In this document: positions 46,835-57,575 of the stretch, one piece after another
How the letters are laid out: each line of letters starts with the position of its first letter
Numbering within the stretch: position 1 is the first letter of the stretch
The notes under the pieces: generated by a model
Databases searched by the model: none
Told to the model about the DNA's origin: nothing
Seen by the model: only the letters and a program-made list of their open reading frames with translations
Assembly: GCA_963777165.1 (NCBI GenBank)
Contig: CAVZPO010000021.1
Span: 140,187-204,186, forward strand
DNA length: 64,000 nt
Origin: an uncultured Chloroflexia bacterium
GTDB lineage: Bacteria > Chloroflexota > Anaerolineae > Anaerolineales > E44-bin32
Direction: 5' to 3'
Made by a program: the position numbers and the translations under genes

Positions 46835-48133
46835 CTACCCCGCTGGATTGACCACCCGACCCAGGAAGAGAATCGTCCCGGTCTGACCGTCGCGGATCAG
46901 GTACAGGAACGGGCGGTCGATGGTGAAGCTGATCGGCTCGTCGGCGGGAGCCGAGGTCACCGACATGATCACGGCCGTGGCGGCGGCTGCCTCGGTGCCC
47001 TTCTCGTCCACCAGCACAAACGCCTTGTGAAGCACATCGCTGATATACAGATCCCGGGCGTCATCCATGCCGGAGAAGTCCGCCCGGTCGGGATCGAAGG
47101 CGTCCGGCATCCCCAGACCGATGAGGGCGTCATTCAGGCTGAAGCTCGATGTGTAGCTGAACTTGGGCAGGGTCAGGATCACGAGCCCGTGGGTCAGGCT
47201 TCCGGAAAGACCCTGGATCATCTCCGAGCTCAATCTCTCTTCGACAGCCTCGAACTCGCCCTCGTCGGGCAGGATAATCAGCATCGAGCTGTTTCCGTTC
47301 AAGTAGGATAGCTCGAGCGCCCGGTATCCATCCCCCATCGCATACCCGTACGACTCGGTCTGATGCATCATGGGGACGTCAAGCGTCGATCCGTCAAGAA
47401 GGTGGAAGGGCTCCGGGCCGGTGGCGCTCTCTTCGAAGGGATGAAGCCAGCCCGCCTTGAAGTAGATGGCATTGGCCAGAACCAGGCGTGTCATCGCGTC
47501 GACGGCACCTTCGGGGATCAGGTCCTGGATCTTCTTGCGGGTTTCGCTGCTCACCCAATCGTTGATCGCCCGGCGGGAGGCATCGGGGTCGGCCATGTAG
47601 TCGACCAGGCGCATGCCCGCGCCGTAGTTCTCCCCCAGCAGGTCGAGGAATTCGCCTCGGAACGGGAAGTCCCGCTGGCCCCACAACGAGTTGGCAATGC
47701 TCAGCTCGAACGGCGTCCCCTCGGTCGCCTGCGCGGCACGCGCCTCGAGGTCGAGGGCGTAGGCGTTGAAGGCGGGGTGCAGGCGCTCCGGGGGCAGGTC
47801 GAAGTGGAGAGCGGCCGCCATCTGGCTGGCGGTCTCTCCGGCGGCGCCGGCGTAGGTCATGGCGAGCGCGGTGGAGATGCTGTAAGGGGAGAAGAACAGG
47901 TTGCCTGGCGCCTGGCGCAATGCGGCGTACAAGTCCGTGGCGAAAGCGGCGTTGCCTTCGGCCAGTGCGGAGAGATCGCCCTGGTTGGCGACGGGGCCCC
48001 GATCGCGTGGTTTATCGGAGATGACCAGCGATGAACCCGGCGGGACGTTCGGCGATGTGGGGGCGCCACAGCCGGCCAAGACAGACAGGAAGAGTGCGAG
48101 AACCATCACGGACGCAAGCGGGAAGCGGTTCAT
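46835..48133 (-). CDS. serpin family serine-protease inhibitor, lipoprotein
   Basis: Signal and lipobox LSVLAGC. NLFFSPYSISTALAMTYAGAAGETASQM; hinge/RCL region GTEAAAATAVIMSVTSA; FTIDRPFLYLIRD. Confidence 0.9.
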   Translation of the reverse strand: MNRFPLASVMVLALFLSVLAGCGAPTSPNVPPGSSLVISDKPRDRGPVANQGDLSALAEGNAAFATDLYAALRQAPGNLFFSPYSISTALAMTYAGAAGETASQMAAALHFDLPPERLHPAFNAYALDLEARAAQATEGTPFELSIANSLWGQRDFPFRGEFLDLLGENYGAGMRLVDYMADPDASRRAINDWVSSETRKKIQDLIPEGAVDAMTRLVLANAIYFKAGWLHPFEESATGPEPFHLLDGSTLDVPMMHQTESYGYAMGDGYRALELSYLNGNSSMLIILPDEGEFEAVEERLSSEMIQGLSGSLTHGLVILTLPKFSYTSSFSLNDALIGLGMPDAFDPDRADFSGMDDARDLYISDVLHKAFVLVDEKGTEAAAATAVIMSVTSAPADEPISFTIDRPFLYLIRDGQTGTILFLGRVVNPAG

Positions 48134-48446: not shown

Positions 48447-49149
48447 TCAGTCTTCGTCTGCCTGGATCCTGAGTCGGTAGCCTACCCCCGGCTCAGTGAC
48501 GATGTGCGTGGGACGCGAAGCATCGGGTTCGATCTTCCGTCTCAGGTTGCTGACATTCACGCGCAGTAGGTGCGCTTCCTGTTCGTAGCCAGCGCCCCAG
48601 ACCTGCCGGAGGATCTGATGGTGGGTCAGTACCTTTCCGGCATTGGTGACGAGCGCGCGGAGGATGTCGTACTCCGTCGGCGTGAGCTGCACCTCATTCC
48701 CTGCGACGGTCACCATGCGGCGCCCCAGGTCGACCGTGAGATTGCCGGAGACGAACACCGGTGCGCTGTCTGACGGGGCCGCCCGCCGCATGCGCCACGC
48801 GCATGCGGGCGAGCAGCTCTCCGGCTCCGAATGGTTTGGTGAGGTAGTCGTCGGCGCCGGCGTCGAGGGCCTCGATCTTGTCGGCCTCTTGCCCTCGGAC
48901 CGAAAGGATGATGATCGGCACCGAGGCCCACTCGCGCACTCGGCGCGTGACCTCGCTTCCATCCATGTCCGGCAAGCCAAGGTCGAGAATGATCAGGTCC
49001 GGGCGGTGCGCAACAACTCCCGAGAGCGCTTCCGCTCCGGAAACCGCCGCAAAGACGGAATAGCCTTCCGCGGAAAGCGCCATGTGCAGGAAGCGCTGGA
49101 TGGCGGGCTCGTCGTCGACGACGAGGACCCGCAGCCCGTTCTCCGTCAT
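48447..49149 (-). pseudogene. kdpE: KdpE response regulator, +1 frame shift at about 48791
   Basis: REC domain LRVLVVDDEPAI...IILDLGLPDMDG...DDYLTKPFGAGELLARMRVA in one frame. The DNA-binding domain (RRAAPSDSAPVF..LTVDL...LTPTEYDILRALVTNAGKVLTHHQILRQVWG...GVGYRL) is in the next frame. Removing one base (t48791 on the + strand) gives RVALRR as in E. coli KdpE. The span is 703 nt. Confidence 0.85.
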
Positions 49150-52127: not shown

Positions 52128-52719
52128 CTACAGATGCCCATCCAGCGCCAGGTTCAACTCGAGCACGTTGACCCGCGGCTCGCCCAGGATCCAGAGCTGG
52201 CGGCCTTGTGTGGAGCGATCCACAAGTTGCCGGACTTGATCCTCGGAGAGACCGCGCTCGCGAGCGACCCGCGGCAGCTGATAGAGTGCCGCGGCAACGC
52301 TGATGTGCGGATCAAGCCCGCTTCCGGAAGCCGTGACGAGATCCACCGGGATCGGGGAGCTATTTCCGGGGTCGGCTGCCTCCAAGGCGTCGATCCGCGC
52401 CTGTGCGGCAGCGACCAGGGCCGGGTTGAGCGGACCATAGTTAGAGCCGGAGGAGGCGGTGAGGTTCTCCGCGTTGAAGGCGTTGTACGGGAACGTGCCG
52501 GTCGCCGAGAGACGGCCCCAGAAGTACTTGGGATCTTCGAACGATTGTCCGATGAGCTCGGAGCCAACGGCCTGTCCATTGCTGAGAATCAAGCTGCCGT
52601 TGGCCTGGTGAGGGAAGACCAAGCTGTGCCACCCCGGTCACGACCAGCGGGTAGATTCCGCCGGTCAGGACCGTCAGGACAAGCAGCAGAAGGAAACCGG
52701 TCTTCAGTTGACTGATCAT
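52128..52719 (-). pseudogene. kdpC: K+-transporting ATPase subunit KdpC, +1 frame shift at about 52619-52622
   Basis: N-terminal [35 protein letters not shown] in one frame. The continuation [11 protein letters not shown]...ELIGQSF...[14 protein letters not shown]...LELNLALD is in the next frame. The span is 592 nt. Confidence 0.85.
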
Positions 52720-52726
52720 GGCATGC

Positions 52727-53506
52727 CTACTTTTCGGAGATAGCGGTCAACGTGGTCGCCCGAAGTTCGAGCTCGGTGGCATAGGCCCGCTCAAGGGACG
52801 TTGCCGCCAAGGCGGCCAGATCCCCCAGCAGACGGCTGTCCGGCGATGGAAGCCAGCCATGGCCTTGCCAGATGTGGATCTCTCCAATCAAGCCGGGAGC
52901 GGCCTCGATGGGGACGACTCGATCCGGCGGCTTGTCAATCGTCACGCCGGCAGGCGCCCTGACCACCGCCGGGATGGAACCGGTTTCGGCCTGCAGCGTG
53001 ACCTCGACCAGCGCGGCATAGAACGTCTGCTGGAGGCGCCGGGCCAGGGTGTGAAGGACGGACTGGCGCGTGCGCAGGCCGGCCAGGGCCAGGCTGAGTT
53101 CGTACATCAGCTTGGCGTCGCGCTCGCTGATGCGCGCCTTCGAGAGTGCATCTTGCATCCGTCCCACGACCAGGATGGCCACGCCCAGGAAGATCGTCAG
53201 GACCAGCCAGCCCTCCAGCTGACCAACGGCAAAGGTGAAGAAGGGAGGGATGAAGAAGAAGTTGAAGACCAACGTGGCCGTCACCGCGGCGCACATGCCC
53301 GGGAGCTGGCCCCAACGGCTCGAGCTCCACACGACGGCCGCCAGATACAGCAGGGCGATGACCGCTTCCCCGAGTGTCCGGCGGCCGAGCAAGAACATGG
53401 GGACGGTCAGGAAGAGCACCAGTACCGTGGCCATGGCACTCTGGTAGACAAGTTCGGCGGGCAGGTTGAGGCGAAGTCTCTTCATCACAGGTTCCTTTCG
53501 GATCAA
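52727..53506 (-). CDS. stand-alone DUF4118 + GAF-like protein (KdpD sensor-core paralog with no KdpD-N, Usp or kinase domains)
   Basis: TM block VTATLVFNFFFIPPFFTFAVGQLEGWL parallels KdpD FDFFFVPPRFTFAVTDTEYVL. It is followed by a coiled linker (ERDAKLMYELSLALAG vs TTELYELSRDLAA) and a GAF-like domain. The protein ends without an H-box. Confidence 0.7.
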   Translation of the reverse strand: MIRKEPVMKRLRLNLPAELVYQSAMATVLVLFLTVPMFLLGRRTLGEAVIALLYLAAVVWSSSRWGQLPGMCAAVTATLVFNFFFIPPFFTFAVGQLEGWLVLTIFLGVAILVVGRMQDALSKARISERDAKLMYELSLALAGLRTRQSVLHTLARRLQQTFYAALVEVTLQAETGSIPAVVRAPAGVTIDKPPDRVVPIEAAPGLIGEIHIWQGHGWLPSPDSRLLGDLAALAATSLERAYATELELRATTLTAISEK

Positions 53507-53525: not shown

Positions 53526-55643
53526 TCAGGTCAACCGCAGCGCGACGAGCAGGAGGTCGATGAGCTTGATCCCGATGAACGGTGCGATGACACCGCCGAC
53601 TCCGTAGATCAGCAAGTTGTCGCGCAGGATCCGCGCCGCCCCCAGCGGCCGATAGGGCACACCGCGCAGGGCCAGGGGAACCAGGGCGATGATGATCAGA
53701 GCGTTGAAGATCACTGCCGAGAGGATGGCGCTTTGCGGGGTCGCCAGCCGCATGAAGTTCAGCGCCGTCAGCACCGGATAGGTGGAGGCGAAGGCGGCCG
53801 GGATGATGGCGAAGTACTTCGCCACGTCGTTGGCAATGCTGAACGTCGTCAGGGCGCCGCGGGTCATCAGCAGCTGCTTGCCGATCTCCACGATCTCGAT
53901 CAGCTTGGTGGGGTTGCTGTCCAGATCTACCATGTTGGCCGCTTCGCGCGCCGGCTGGGTGCCGGTGTTCATGGCCACGGCGACATCGGCCTGCGCCAGG
54001 GCCGGTGCGTCATTCGTGCCGTCGCCGGTCATGGCGACCAGGCGACCGCCGGCCTGATGCTCGCGGATCAGCTTGAGCTTGGCCTCCGGCGTGGCCTGCG
54101 CCAGGAAATCGTCCACCCCGGCTTCGGCGGCGATGGCGGCGGCGGTCAGCGGGTTGTCACCCGTGATCATCACGGTCTTAATGCCCATCTTGCGCAAGTG
54201 CGCGAACCGCTCTTTGATTCCGCCCTTGACGATATCCTTCAAGTGGATCACGCCCAGCGCCTGTCCGTTGCGCGCCACCACCAAAGGTGTGCCCCCGCTG
54301 CGGGCGATCGTATCTACCGCGACCTGCAATTCCGGCGGGGTGTGGTTCCCCTGGCTGCGGATCAGCGTCTGCATCGTATCCGGGGCGCCCTTGCGGATCG
54401 TGGTCCCATCCGGCAGGTCCACGCCGCTCATCCGCGTTTGTGCGGTAAACGGGACGAAGTGCATCTCGGCCGAGCGTGCCTCGGCGGCAGCCCCCAGGGG
54501 TCCGGTGCCCACGGAGCGGGCGCGCAAGCCGTACTTCTCCTTCGCCAGGACCACGATGCTTCGTCCCTCCGGTGTCTCGTCGGCCAGGGAAGCCAGCTGG
54601 GCAGCTTCGGCCAGCGTCTCCGGCGGGGTCATCCCCACCGGAACGAACTCCACCGCCTGCCGGTTGCCGAGCGTGATCGTGCCGGTCTTGTCCAGCAGCA
54701 GCACGTCGACGTCCCCGGCCGCCTCCACCGCGCGGCCGGACATGGCGATGACGTTGCGCTGGATCATGCGGTCCATCCCGGCAATGCCGATGGCCGAGAG
54801 CAGGCCGCCGATGGTCGTGGGGATCAGGCACACCAGCAGAGCGACCAGCACGGTAATGGTGATCGGGATCCCCATGCCAGCGGCCCGCACGCTGAACAGC
54901 GAGTAGGGCAGCAGCGTGGAGCACACGACAAGGAAGATGACCGTGAAGCCGGCCAGCAGGATGTTCAGGGCGATCTCGTTCGGCGTCTTCTGCCGCTTGG
55001 CGCCCTCCACCAGGCTGATCATGCGGTCCAGGAACCCCTCCCCGGGGTCGGCCGTGACGCGGATGATGAGCCAGTCCGAGAGCACGCGCGTGCCGCCCGT
55101 GACGGCGCTGCGATCGCCGCCCGCTTCACGGATCACAGGGGCGCTCTCTCCGGTGACGGCGCTTTCGTCGACGGAGGCAATGCCCTCGACGATCTCACCG
55201 TCGGCCGGGATGATGTCGTTGACCTCGACCAGGAACGCATCGTCCTTGCGCAGCCCGATGGAGGAAACCAGCTCCACCTCGGCGTCGCGGCGCGGGGCGC
55301 GCAGCTTCTTGGCCCTGGTCTCCTTGCGCGTCTTGCGCAGCGCCTCGGCCTGGGCTTTGCCGCGCCCCTCGGCCACCGCCTCGGCGAAGTTGGCGAACAG
55401 GACGGTGAACCACAGCCACAGCGCCACCGCCCCGATGAACCCGACCGGTGCCTCGCCGCGTCCGGCAAGGGCCTGGATCCAGAGAGCGGTCGTGAGCACG
55501 CTGCCGACCTCGACGACGAACATCACCGGGTTGCGGACTTCCAGGCGCGGGTCGAGCTTGCGGAAGGAGTCCCAGATGGCACGCTGGTAGAGCTGTCGGC
55601 GGTAAGATGGTTGTTTCTTGAGTTGCATCGTATGTGTTGTCAT
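53526..55643 (-). CDS. kdpB: K+-transporting P-type ATPase subunit KdpB
   Basis: 705 aa; [10 protein letters not shown] phosphorylation site; TGDNPLTA; [21 protein letters not shown]. Confidence 0.95.
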
Positions 55644-55647
55644 GGCC

Positions 55648-57391
55648 CTAATGCCCCAACATCAGATGTTCCACGAAGGGTCCGAGCGACAGCGCCGGGA
55701 TGAAGCTCAGCGCGCCGACAATGATGATGACGCCGATCAGCCAGGCAATGAACAGCGGCGTGTGCGTGGAAAGCGTTCCGGCCCCTGCCGGCACCTTCTT
55801 CTTGCGCACCAGCGATCCGGCGATCGCCAGGGCCGGGATGGCCAGCCAGTATCGAGCAAGGAACATGGCGACCCCCAAGGAGGTGTTGTAGAAAGGCGTG
55901 TTCACGCCGATCCCGGCAAAGGCACTTCCATTGTTGTTGGATGCCGACGAGAAGGCATAGAGGACCTCGCTGAACCCGTGCGCTCCGGGATTGAAGATCG
56001 TCTCCTGCCCGGCAGGGACGGCTACCGCCGCTGCCGTTCCGATCACCACGAGAACGATCGGGATCAGGATCATCAGCGACGCCATCTTCATCTCAAAGGC
56101 CTCGATCTTCTTTCCCAGGTACTCCGGCGTGCGGCCGACCATCAGCCCGGCGACAAACACTGCCACGATGACGAAGGCCAGCATGCCGTACAGCCCGGAC
56201 CCCACCCCTCCGTAGATGATCTCGCCCAACTGCATCATGAACAGCGGAACGAACCCACCCAGCGGCATGAACGAGTCGTGCATCGAGTTGACCGACCCGT
56301 TGGAGGCGGCGGTCGTGGCCGTGGCCCACAGGGCCGAGTTGGCGATGCCGAAGCGCGCCTCCTTGCCTTCCATGTTGCCGCCAGGCTGCAGGGTACTTGC
56401 CTGCTGATCGACGCCCAGCGCGGCGAAGGCCGGGTTGCCGCTCTGCTCGGCCCACACGGCGATCCCCAGCATCACCACAAAGATGGCCGTCATCGCCGCC
56501 AGCAGTGCCCAGCCCTGGCGCGTGTCACCGACCATCTTGCCGAAGGTGTAGACCAGCGCCGCCGGGATCAGCAGGATCGACAGCATCTCCAGGAAGTTGG
56601 AGAACGGTGTCGGGTTCTCGAACGGGTGGGAGGAGTTCACATTGAAGAAGCCCCCACCATTGGTCCCCAGCTGCTTGATGGCGACTTGCGATGCCGCGGG
56701 GCCGACGGCCAGCACCTGCTGCGCCACGGCCCCGCCGTTCGAATCGGTTGTCGGCTGCAGCAGGTTCACGGTCTCATAGGTGCCGAAGGTCTGCACCACG
56801 CCTTGCGAAACCAGCAGGACCGCCAGGACGAACGCAAGCGGGAGCAGGATGTAGAGCGTGGTCCGCACCATGTCCACCCAGAAGTTGCCGATGGTCTTCG
56901 AGGAGTGCCGGGCGATGCCGCGGATCAACGCCACCATCGCCGCCATCCCGGTGGCGGCGGAGACGAAGTTCTGTACCGTCAGGGCAAACATCTGGGTCAG
57001 GTAGCTCATCGTCACTTCGCCGCCGTAGCCCTTGCCAGTTGGTGTTGGTGGCGAAGCTGACGGCCGTGTTCCAGGACGAGTCGGGCGTGACGGCCCCGAG
57101 GGCCTGCGGATTGAGCGGCAGGAATGCCTGCAGCCGCTGCAGGGCATACACCGCCAGCAGCCCCAGGACGTTGAAGACCATGAAGGCGATGGCGTAGGTT
57201 CTCCACCCCATCTCTTCATTGGAGCGCACGCCCGTAATCCGATACACCAACCGTTCCACCGGGCCAACGACTGCATCAAGGAACGTCCGCTCCCCCTGGT
57301 AGACACGGGCCATGAAAGTCCCCAGCGGCTTGGCCAGAAGCAGGAGCACGACAATGTAGAGAACGAGTTGAAACCAGCTTGCCGCGTTCAT
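55648..57391 (-). pseudogene. kdpA: K+-transporting ATPase subunit KdpA, +1 frame shift in a C-run at 57029-57031
   Basis: The N-terminus through [16 protein letters not shown] is in one frame. [27 protein letters not shown]...[19 protein letters not shown]...NNNGSAFAG continues in the next frame. Removing one G from CAAGGGCTAC restores NWQGYGGE. ATG 57391 overlaps the kdpF stop. The span is 1744 nt. Confidence 0.9.
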
Positions 57392-57480
57392 CCGAACCAC
57401 TCCGGCTTGAGCATGGCGAAGACCAGGTAGACGAGCAGCGCCAACGAGATCAGTCCGGCTGCAAGGTAGAGGACGCTCAT
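57388..57480 (-). CDS. kdpF: K+-transporting ATPase subunit KdpF
   Basis: 30 aa, MSVLYLAAGLISLALLVYLVFAMLKPEWFG: a single TM peptide directly coupled (ATGA) to kdpA. Confidence 0.7.
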   Translation of the reverse strand: MSVLYLAAGLISLALLVYLVFAMLKPEWFG

Positions 57481-57575
57481 GGGTTTGTCTCCATCAGCCG
57501 GTCGCAGACGACGATCAACCCCCACGAGAGGGCGAACAGGACCAATGTGAAGCCAATGTACGCAAGATCCATCAT
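57477..57575 (-). CDS. candidate 32-aa single-TM micro-protein upstream of kdpF
   Basis: GAAGGAG 7 nt upstream of ATGATG. MMDLAYIGFTLVLFALSWGLIVVCDRLMETNP. Its TGA overlaps the kdpF ATG (ATGA). Confidence 0.35.
   Translation of the reverse strand: MMDLAYIGFTLVLFALSWGLIVVCDRLMETNP

Follow-up and report, generated by a model that had tools for sequence, protein, structure and literature searches.

A gene lying between kdpB and kdpC on the minus strand, called X here and the subject of this analysis, is a conserved accessory gene of the Chloroflexota Kdp system that is undescribed within the literature searched. It was found in the window, the whole stretch of 64,000 nucleotides that was analyzed, and comparison with related loci shows that, in a Chloroflexota lineage, it is fixed within the transcription unit of kdpFABC. 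The reading preferred here, held tentatively, is that X would bind KdpD as a non-catalytic, probably K+-responsive partner and feed back on KdpD output.

The mechanical ORF of X spans 52727..53506 on the minus strand, with a TTG start at 53506 and a length of 259 aa (ORF list). The sequence-only reading had given X this length, with spacers of 19 and 7 nt on its two sides, which holds for the mechanical ORF but not for the probable gene. The true start is most likely the ATG at 53485, because all close homologues, of ~252 aa, begin there, with MK or MR as their first residues, and the Shine-Dalgarno-like GAAAGGAA lies 6 nt upstream of it. This start gives a product of 252 aa and spacers of 40 nt between kdpB and X and 7 nt between X and kdpC. 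X aligns gap-free with homologues of 91% identity, and its embedding between kdpB and kdpC, as had been read from the sequence, was confirmed from the ORFs (Table 1). No promoter-like or terminator-like sites flanking X were found in a scan of the window around it, and an Rfam scan around X yielded no match, the c-di-AMP riboswitch included.

Table 1. Features of gene X and the surrounding kdp locus, with positions in the window.
Feature	Position	Strand	Basis
Gene X (252-aa kinase-less DUF4118 + shortened GAF; start most likely)	52727..53485	-	ORF; homologue lengths and starts; family dN/dS
Stop codon of X	52727-52729	-	
Shine-Dalgarno-like GAAAGGAA	53492..53499	-	6 nt upstream of X ATG; read from sequence
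DUF4118 membrane domain of X	53123..53434	-	Residues 18-121 of 252; Pfam PF13493, 2KSF profile match, AlphaFold helices
Stalk helix + shortened GAF of X (predicted)	52730..53122	-	AlphaFold, Foldseek, profile vs 4QPR
kdpF, 30 aa	57388..57480	-	Pfam Potass_KdpF; tblastn with L007 KdpF
kdpA, frameshift near 57030	55648..57400	-	tblastn with intact L007 KdpA
kdpB, P-type ATPase subunit, 705 aa, directly upstream of X	53526..55643	-	Pfam E1-E2_ATPase, Hydrolase
kdpC, broken by 1-nt insertion	52128..52719	-	Pfam KdpC on two ORFs in different frames
kdpD, full length, 889 aa	49146..51815	-	Pfam + NCBIfam
kdpE, OmpR-type response regulator, frameshift near 48792	48447..49149	-	Receiver and Trans_reg_C on two overlapping ORFs

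The minus-strand order of the locus is a 32-codon ORF, kdpF, kdpA, kdpB, X, kdpC, kdpD, and kdpE, with a gap of 312 nt between kdpC and kdpD. The window KdpB is 88% identical to that of locus L007, and the local KdpD contains KdpD-N, Usp, its own DUF4118, GAF, HisKA, and HATPase_c. kdpB, X, and kdpD are intact, and kdpA, kdpC, and kdpE hold one single-base frameshift each, located at short G/C or T runs. The frame of kdpA switches at 57029-57033 (tblastn with L007 KdpA), where a GGG run occurs, and a DNA alignment against three relatives shows one T too many in kdpC near 52621-52622. These frameshifts are probably sequencing (long-read indel) errors rather than signs of operon decay, because the indels fall at short homopolymer runs, the closest assembly, L005 (91.5% DNA identity across the locus), is itself full of single-base breaks, and 61 gaps over 9.1 kb separate the two assemblies.

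Two further genes of this region were observed. Directly upstream of kdpF and overlapping its start lies a single-helix ORF of ~30-32 aa (window 57477-57575, minus strand) with the pattern M.DL.Y.GLT..F...SWG.I..C[DE]RLME, which is conserved in ~25 related loci (e.g., L007 3909-4007); it had no Pfam match in L007 and L008 and may be an extra small Kdp peptide. A 432-aa serpin (window 46835-48133, minus strand; Pfam Serpin, E 1e-114) whose N-terminus (…LAGCG) resembles that of lipoproteins is located ~300 nt downstream of kdpE. Serpins are uncommon in bacteria.

The sole Pfam domain identified in X is DUF4118 (PF13493), with an E-value of 9e-21 and 74.1 bits against a gathering cut-off of 28.4; X covers model positions 3-105 of 107 and is thus a DUF4118 member. 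This domain includes four predicted transmembrane helices and an F-N-F-F-F-I-P-P-F loop. In an AlphaFold model built from an alignment of 39 sequences (mean pLDDT 85), helices occupy residues 10-33, 40-58, 60-78, and 90 onward, the fourth extending as a long stalk to approximately residue 134. The stalk is followed by a helix at 140-155, four strands, and a C-terminal helix at 219-251. According to this model, the C-terminal part of X is a GAF fold (an antiparallel sheet with N- and C-terminal helices) in a shortened form that is missed by the Pfam GAF models. Foldseek searches against the PDB returned the E. coli KdpD GAF structures 4Y2F/4QPR as best matches (probability 1.0, target TM-score 0.63), and all top 10 matches were GAF domains. 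The X family profile likewise matches the KdpD GAF structure 4QPR (E 5.6e-6) and the KdpD transmembrane NMR structure 2KSF (E 2.9e-11). No match to PF01590, PF13185, or PF13492 occurred at E <= 0.1, as compared to an E-value of 1.5e-14 for GAF_3 in the local KdpD, and alignment gaps against the local KdpD indicate that the GAF of X is ~35-36 residues shorter than that of KdpD. Pfam, profile, and AlphaFold/Foldseek results hence agree with the earlier description of X as a DUF4118 + GAF module that stands alone and has its homologue in the membrane/GAF core of KdpD.

Equally borne out was the claim that X is without KdpD-N/Usp and without the whole kinase. Neither PF02702 (KdpD-N, Walker A/B) nor Usp was detected in X at E <= 0.1, in a comparison in which the local KdpD scored 326 bits, and no Pfam match to HisKA or HATPase_c was obtained. 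The C-terminus of X lies about a dozen residues before the SHELRTPL His box of related kinases, which run on as ...ETRARVLEESDRLKSALLSSVSHELRTPL past the endpoint of X. X cannot phosphorylate anything, because it ends before the phospho-acceptor His box and is without an ATP-binding domain. The NCBIfam KdpD model NF007793 gave 55.4 bits against a cut-off of 1123 and was matched at profile positions 404-571 alone, and NF038185 (KdpD-like non-kinase potassium sensor, N-terminal half only) did not match X, as compared to 385 bits for the N-terminus of the local KdpD. The JGI name "K+-sensing histidine kinase KdpD" carried by X homologues, a common database label, is therefore an over-annotation, as the protein cannot be a kinase. 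X and KdpD of the E. coli type (NF007793) have in common the four-helix DUF4118 with the FxFFFxPP loop, the stalk helix, the GAF fold, and the linkage to the kdp locus. In contrast to KdpD, X is without KdpD-N (Walker A/B serine-kinase), Usp, the His box, and the ATPase domain, and its gene lies among those of the pump, in a locus that also encodes a complete KdpD.

BLASTP of X against the 889-aa local KdpD aligned X 22-255 with KdpD 402-659 at 29% identity (E 8e-17), so that the pairwise comparison with KdpD residues ~400-650 proved significant. Both motif pairs that had been quoted for the two proteins are present in this alignment, and the similarity is thus far beyond chance. The proposed paralogy with the local KdpD was upheld as homology to its membrane/GAF core but not as a local copy. 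X is 25.6% identical to the transmembrane-GAF region of the KdpD of its own operon and 25.5% to those of other loci (permutation p = 0.33), and the two groups fall into separate clades of a bootstrapped neighbour-joining tree with a midpoint root. Together, these results rule out that X is a recent duplicate of the resident kdpD or has undergone gene conversion with it.

In this tree, the X family forms one clade with 62% bootstrap, nested, together with short DUF4118-HisKA-HATPase kinases of ~480-500 aa, in a group that has 100% support, and the KdpD transmembrane-GAF regions of the operons form a separate clade (98%). The short kinases are the nearest kinase-bearing relatives of X, with 32-37% identity over all of X, and they share the shortened GAF that is missed by Pfam GAF models. 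They differ from X in carrying a DHp/CA core with a partner response regulator and in lying outside kdp operons, whereas X stops before the His box. One of them, P0166, adjoins an OmpR-type regulator away from kdp genes and is without a Pfam GAF match. X most likely descends from such a short DUF4118 kinase, which would have lost its DHp/CA core and then been recruited into the kdp operon; because the tree is crude (a distance method with a midpoint root), this descent is inferred. Three distant "250-aa" matches (P0163, P0170, and P0189, <=36% identity) were rejected as members of the X family, since they are truncated true kinases. In locus L014 (38-1410), an ORF of DUF4118 and shortened GAF is followed 12 nt later by a separate HisKA/HATPase ORF, which is a short kinase broken by a frameshift or else a natural split exactly where X ends.

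A word-indexed search assigned E <= 1e-3 to 876 X homologues among the 8000 candidates scored, and the best 120 of these 876 were all DUF4118-only and mostly 244-265 aa long. An exhaustive search of 50%-identity representatives recovered 42 homologues with E <= 1e-30, mostly of 240-260 aa. The metagenome scan yielded 434 stretches related to X, and more than 400 metagenomic relatives were counted, nearly all of them of ~250 aa. The named genomes matching X were all Chloroflexota MAGs, from Anaerolineae and "Chloroflexia", and no relative was found in the plasmid collection. Of 94 loci, 85 have an intact ORF of 230-275 aa, and dN/dS between close pairs ranged from 0.04 to 0.30, typically ~0.12, values by which X is a real gene under purifying selection. 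Some family members are longer, at 313-378 aa (P0124, P0129, P0140, P0142, P0151, P0175, and L100 4368-5504), with an N-terminal extension that apparently adds two more membrane helices; P0140 is still located between kdpB and kdpC.

Kdp proteins were mapped onto the fetched loci, which gave a context count over 87 non-redundant loci. The order kdpB-X-kdpC was found in 59 of them, with another 13 consistent with this order but cut by a contig end. X followed kdpC in 8 loci and lay between kdpA and kdpB in 1, with other arrangements accounting for ~6. Linkage to kdp genes persists from 91% down to 38% identity and through three kinds of rearrangement. Four of the kdpC-X loci keep a 3' kdpC remnant after X and consequently derive from the kdpB-X-kdpC order; these fragments (residues ~118-189) occur at L022 2769-2984, L031 1362-1553, L037 8766-8900, and L038 1887-2078, the one in L037 with an in-frame stop.

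Full-length KdpD, with its N-terminal, transmembrane-GAF, and kinase parts, is encoded downstream in 24 of the 25 loci whose sequence continues for 4.2 kb or more on that side. The idea that X is the complementary fragment of a truncated KdpD fails at this point, because the local KdpD is a full-length protein that has a DUF4118 + GAF of its own, and the same applies to those 24 loci; X is an extra module rather than the missing half of a split KdpD. The exception is L004, in which a 47%-identical relative lies beside a eut/pdu-like (ethanolamine/propanediol-type) cluster with no kdp genes within 6 kb. Relatives outside kdp operons are few and consist of L004 and of L075/L077, in which X is next to a P2-type ATPase.

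Insertions beside X were observed in several loci. In L027 (965-5877), the interval between kdpB and X has gained a gene for a P2-type cation ATPase of 957 aa, two TrkA (RCK) genes, and an ORF of 230 aa without a Pfam match. An ATPase orthologous to that of L027 (72-74% identity) follows X in L077 (4427-6919) and L075 (1493-2953), and the 187-nt spacer between X and the P2-type ATPase in these two loci holds a kdpE 3' remnant ending in ...IEPGVDYRFKLE before its stop. In L041 (604-2430, with a partial copy at L043 37-732), kdpB and X are separated by an inserted gene for a polytopic membrane protein of 608 aa, for which no Pfam match was obtained even at E <= 1.

In some cyanobacteria, the operon position of X is occupied by kdpG, a small ORF between kdpB and kdpC, whose product is a much shorter hydrophobic peptide than X. 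Full-text literature searches on DUF4118 with kdp and on kdp with Chloroflexi returned no description of an X-like gene. KdpD architectures in 5495 species have been sorted into 28 classes (Silberberg et al. 2024, PMC11018627), none of which combines a full-length KdpD with a separate TM/GAF-only protein, although extra variants beside full-length KdpD were left out of that survey. The split or truncated KdpDs described there (KdpD/Usp-only, cyanobacteria, Deinococcus) resemble X as KdpD modules encoded by separate genes in or beside the kdp operon (PMC11018627). They differ in that the only KdpD is split or truncated, whereas X accompanies a full-length KdpD. In E. coli KdpD, the sites proposed to sense K+ are placed in the transmembrane domain for extracellular K+ and in the GAF domain for intracellular K+, and an interaction between KdpD and KdpB has been reported (PMC11018627).

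According to the preferred reading, X would be made along with the pump subunits, and only once KdpD and KdpE turn the operon on under K+ limitation, since it is encoded with them. It retains the very parts in which the K+-sensing sites of E. coli KdpD are reported to reside and which make up the dimer spine of sensor kinases, and for this reason would probably act by binding. X would associate with KdpD in the membrane through contacts of the transmembrane domain, the stalk, and the GAF spine, and this association would tune the kinase/phosphatase output of KdpD, possibly also its serine-kinase output. The two proteins would then form a regulon-encoded feedback loop, similar to the small membrane regulators of other sensor kinases. 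MgrB is such a regulator for PhoQ. By analogy, X is likewise a non-catalytic membrane protein whose synthesis would be driven by the two-component system on which it may feed back. Regulators of the MgrB type are short peptides unrelated to the kinase, whereas X, at 252 aa, is paralogous to a kinase input module.

Support for a partnership with KdpD comes from the nature of X as an input/dimer-spine module, from the near-constant presence of a full KdpD, and, weakly, from the correlation of evolutionary distances. Pairwise X distances across 21 loci track those of KdpD-N with r = 0.90, followed by 0.88 for KdpD transmembrane-GAF, 0.83 for KdpC, and 0.72 for KdpB; rates differ among these proteins, KdpB evolving slowly, and this confounds the correlations. 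Between KdpD transmembrane-GAF and KdpB, the bootstrap difference was 0.19 (95% interval 0.03-0.41), and the interval against KdpC includes zero. Overall, the distances lean weakly toward KdpD as the partner. Against such a partnership, X is mostly separated from kdpD by kdpC; in the window, X lies on the pump side of the locus, since kdpC and the 312-nt gap part it from kdpD. Paralogous kinases are usually insulated from one another. As X and KdpD are only ~25-29% identical, other kinases are closer to X, and the KdpD of its own operon is no closer than that of others, the homology does not imply heterodimerisation.

The location among the pump genes invites a second reading, in which X would be an accessory fifth membrane subunit of KdpFABC, a K+-sensing brake or stabiliser that binds KdpA, KdpB, or KdpC and acts post-translationally without phosphorylation. 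X is always found among the structural genes, in three positions (A|B, B|C, and C|D) and never between or after kdpD and kdpE, with short spacers to the adjoining pump genes. It stays with kdpC in L027 despite the inserted P2-type ATPase and TrkA genes, and it is intact in L075/L077 beside the orthologous ATPase, with the kdpE remnant alone left; these two loci look decayed, however, so the adjacency may be accidental. KdpB and KdpA show the weakest distance correlation with X, the fold matches a kinase input module, a type of domain that usually pairs with kinase spines, and none of the solved KdpFABC structures and papers searched reports such a subunit. A pump subunit of this kind is possible but doubtful, and feedback on KdpD is slightly favoured over direct binding to KdpFABC. 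A bolder form, which we regard as unlikely, would make X a true fifth subunit of the Kdp pump in Chloroflexota, a kinase input module exapted as a transporter-bound K+ sensor that would gate KdpFABC directly or tether KdpD to the pump so that both sense K+ as one complex. If true, the pump would be controlled post-translationally with no need of the kinase half.

The operon position and co-expression would serve equally well for an assembly or membrane-insertion helper of the Kdp complex, needed only while the pump is made and with no sensing role. This is improbable, as the GAF part and the stalk of X are conserved to the same degree as the membrane part, which fits a signalling module better, and we know of no precedent for DUF4118 as an insertase. 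Slightly more improbable still is a generic membrane sensor or scaffold that serves another, Kdp-independent pathway and hitch-hikes in the operon. The L004 relative beside the ethanolamine/propanediol-type cluster would suit such a role, as would the nearest kinase relatives of X, which are not Kdp-linked, but the persistence of operon linkage across the identity range and rearrangements given above speaks against it. Least credible by far is a non-functional remnant of a second kdpD or another kinase decaying in place: the absent kinase half and the three frameshifted neighbouring genes would fit it, but a length of ~250 aa is kept in hundreds of loci, dN/dS is ~0.1, X has its own ribosome-binding site, the kinase fragments looked for downstream were not found (kdpC starts 7 nt past the X stop, leaving none 3' of X), and the window frameshifts have the marks of sequencing error, so that a decaying second kdpD is ruled out at the family level by length conservation, dN/dS, and the missing fragments.

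X bears on K+ sensing by the membrane and GAF domains of KdpD and on the communication between KdpD and the pump. It represents a sensor module of the KdpD type that occurs on its own in nature, with neither of the two kinase activities, and hundreds of uncultured Chloroflexota encode it together with the pump. If X binds KdpD, it would represent a new kind of regulon-encoded feedback element derived from the input domain of the kinase itself, and if it binds the pump, it would be a new regulatory subunit of a P-type ATPase. Either way, X offers a small and tractable protein for studying K+ sensing by DUF4118 and GAF domains.
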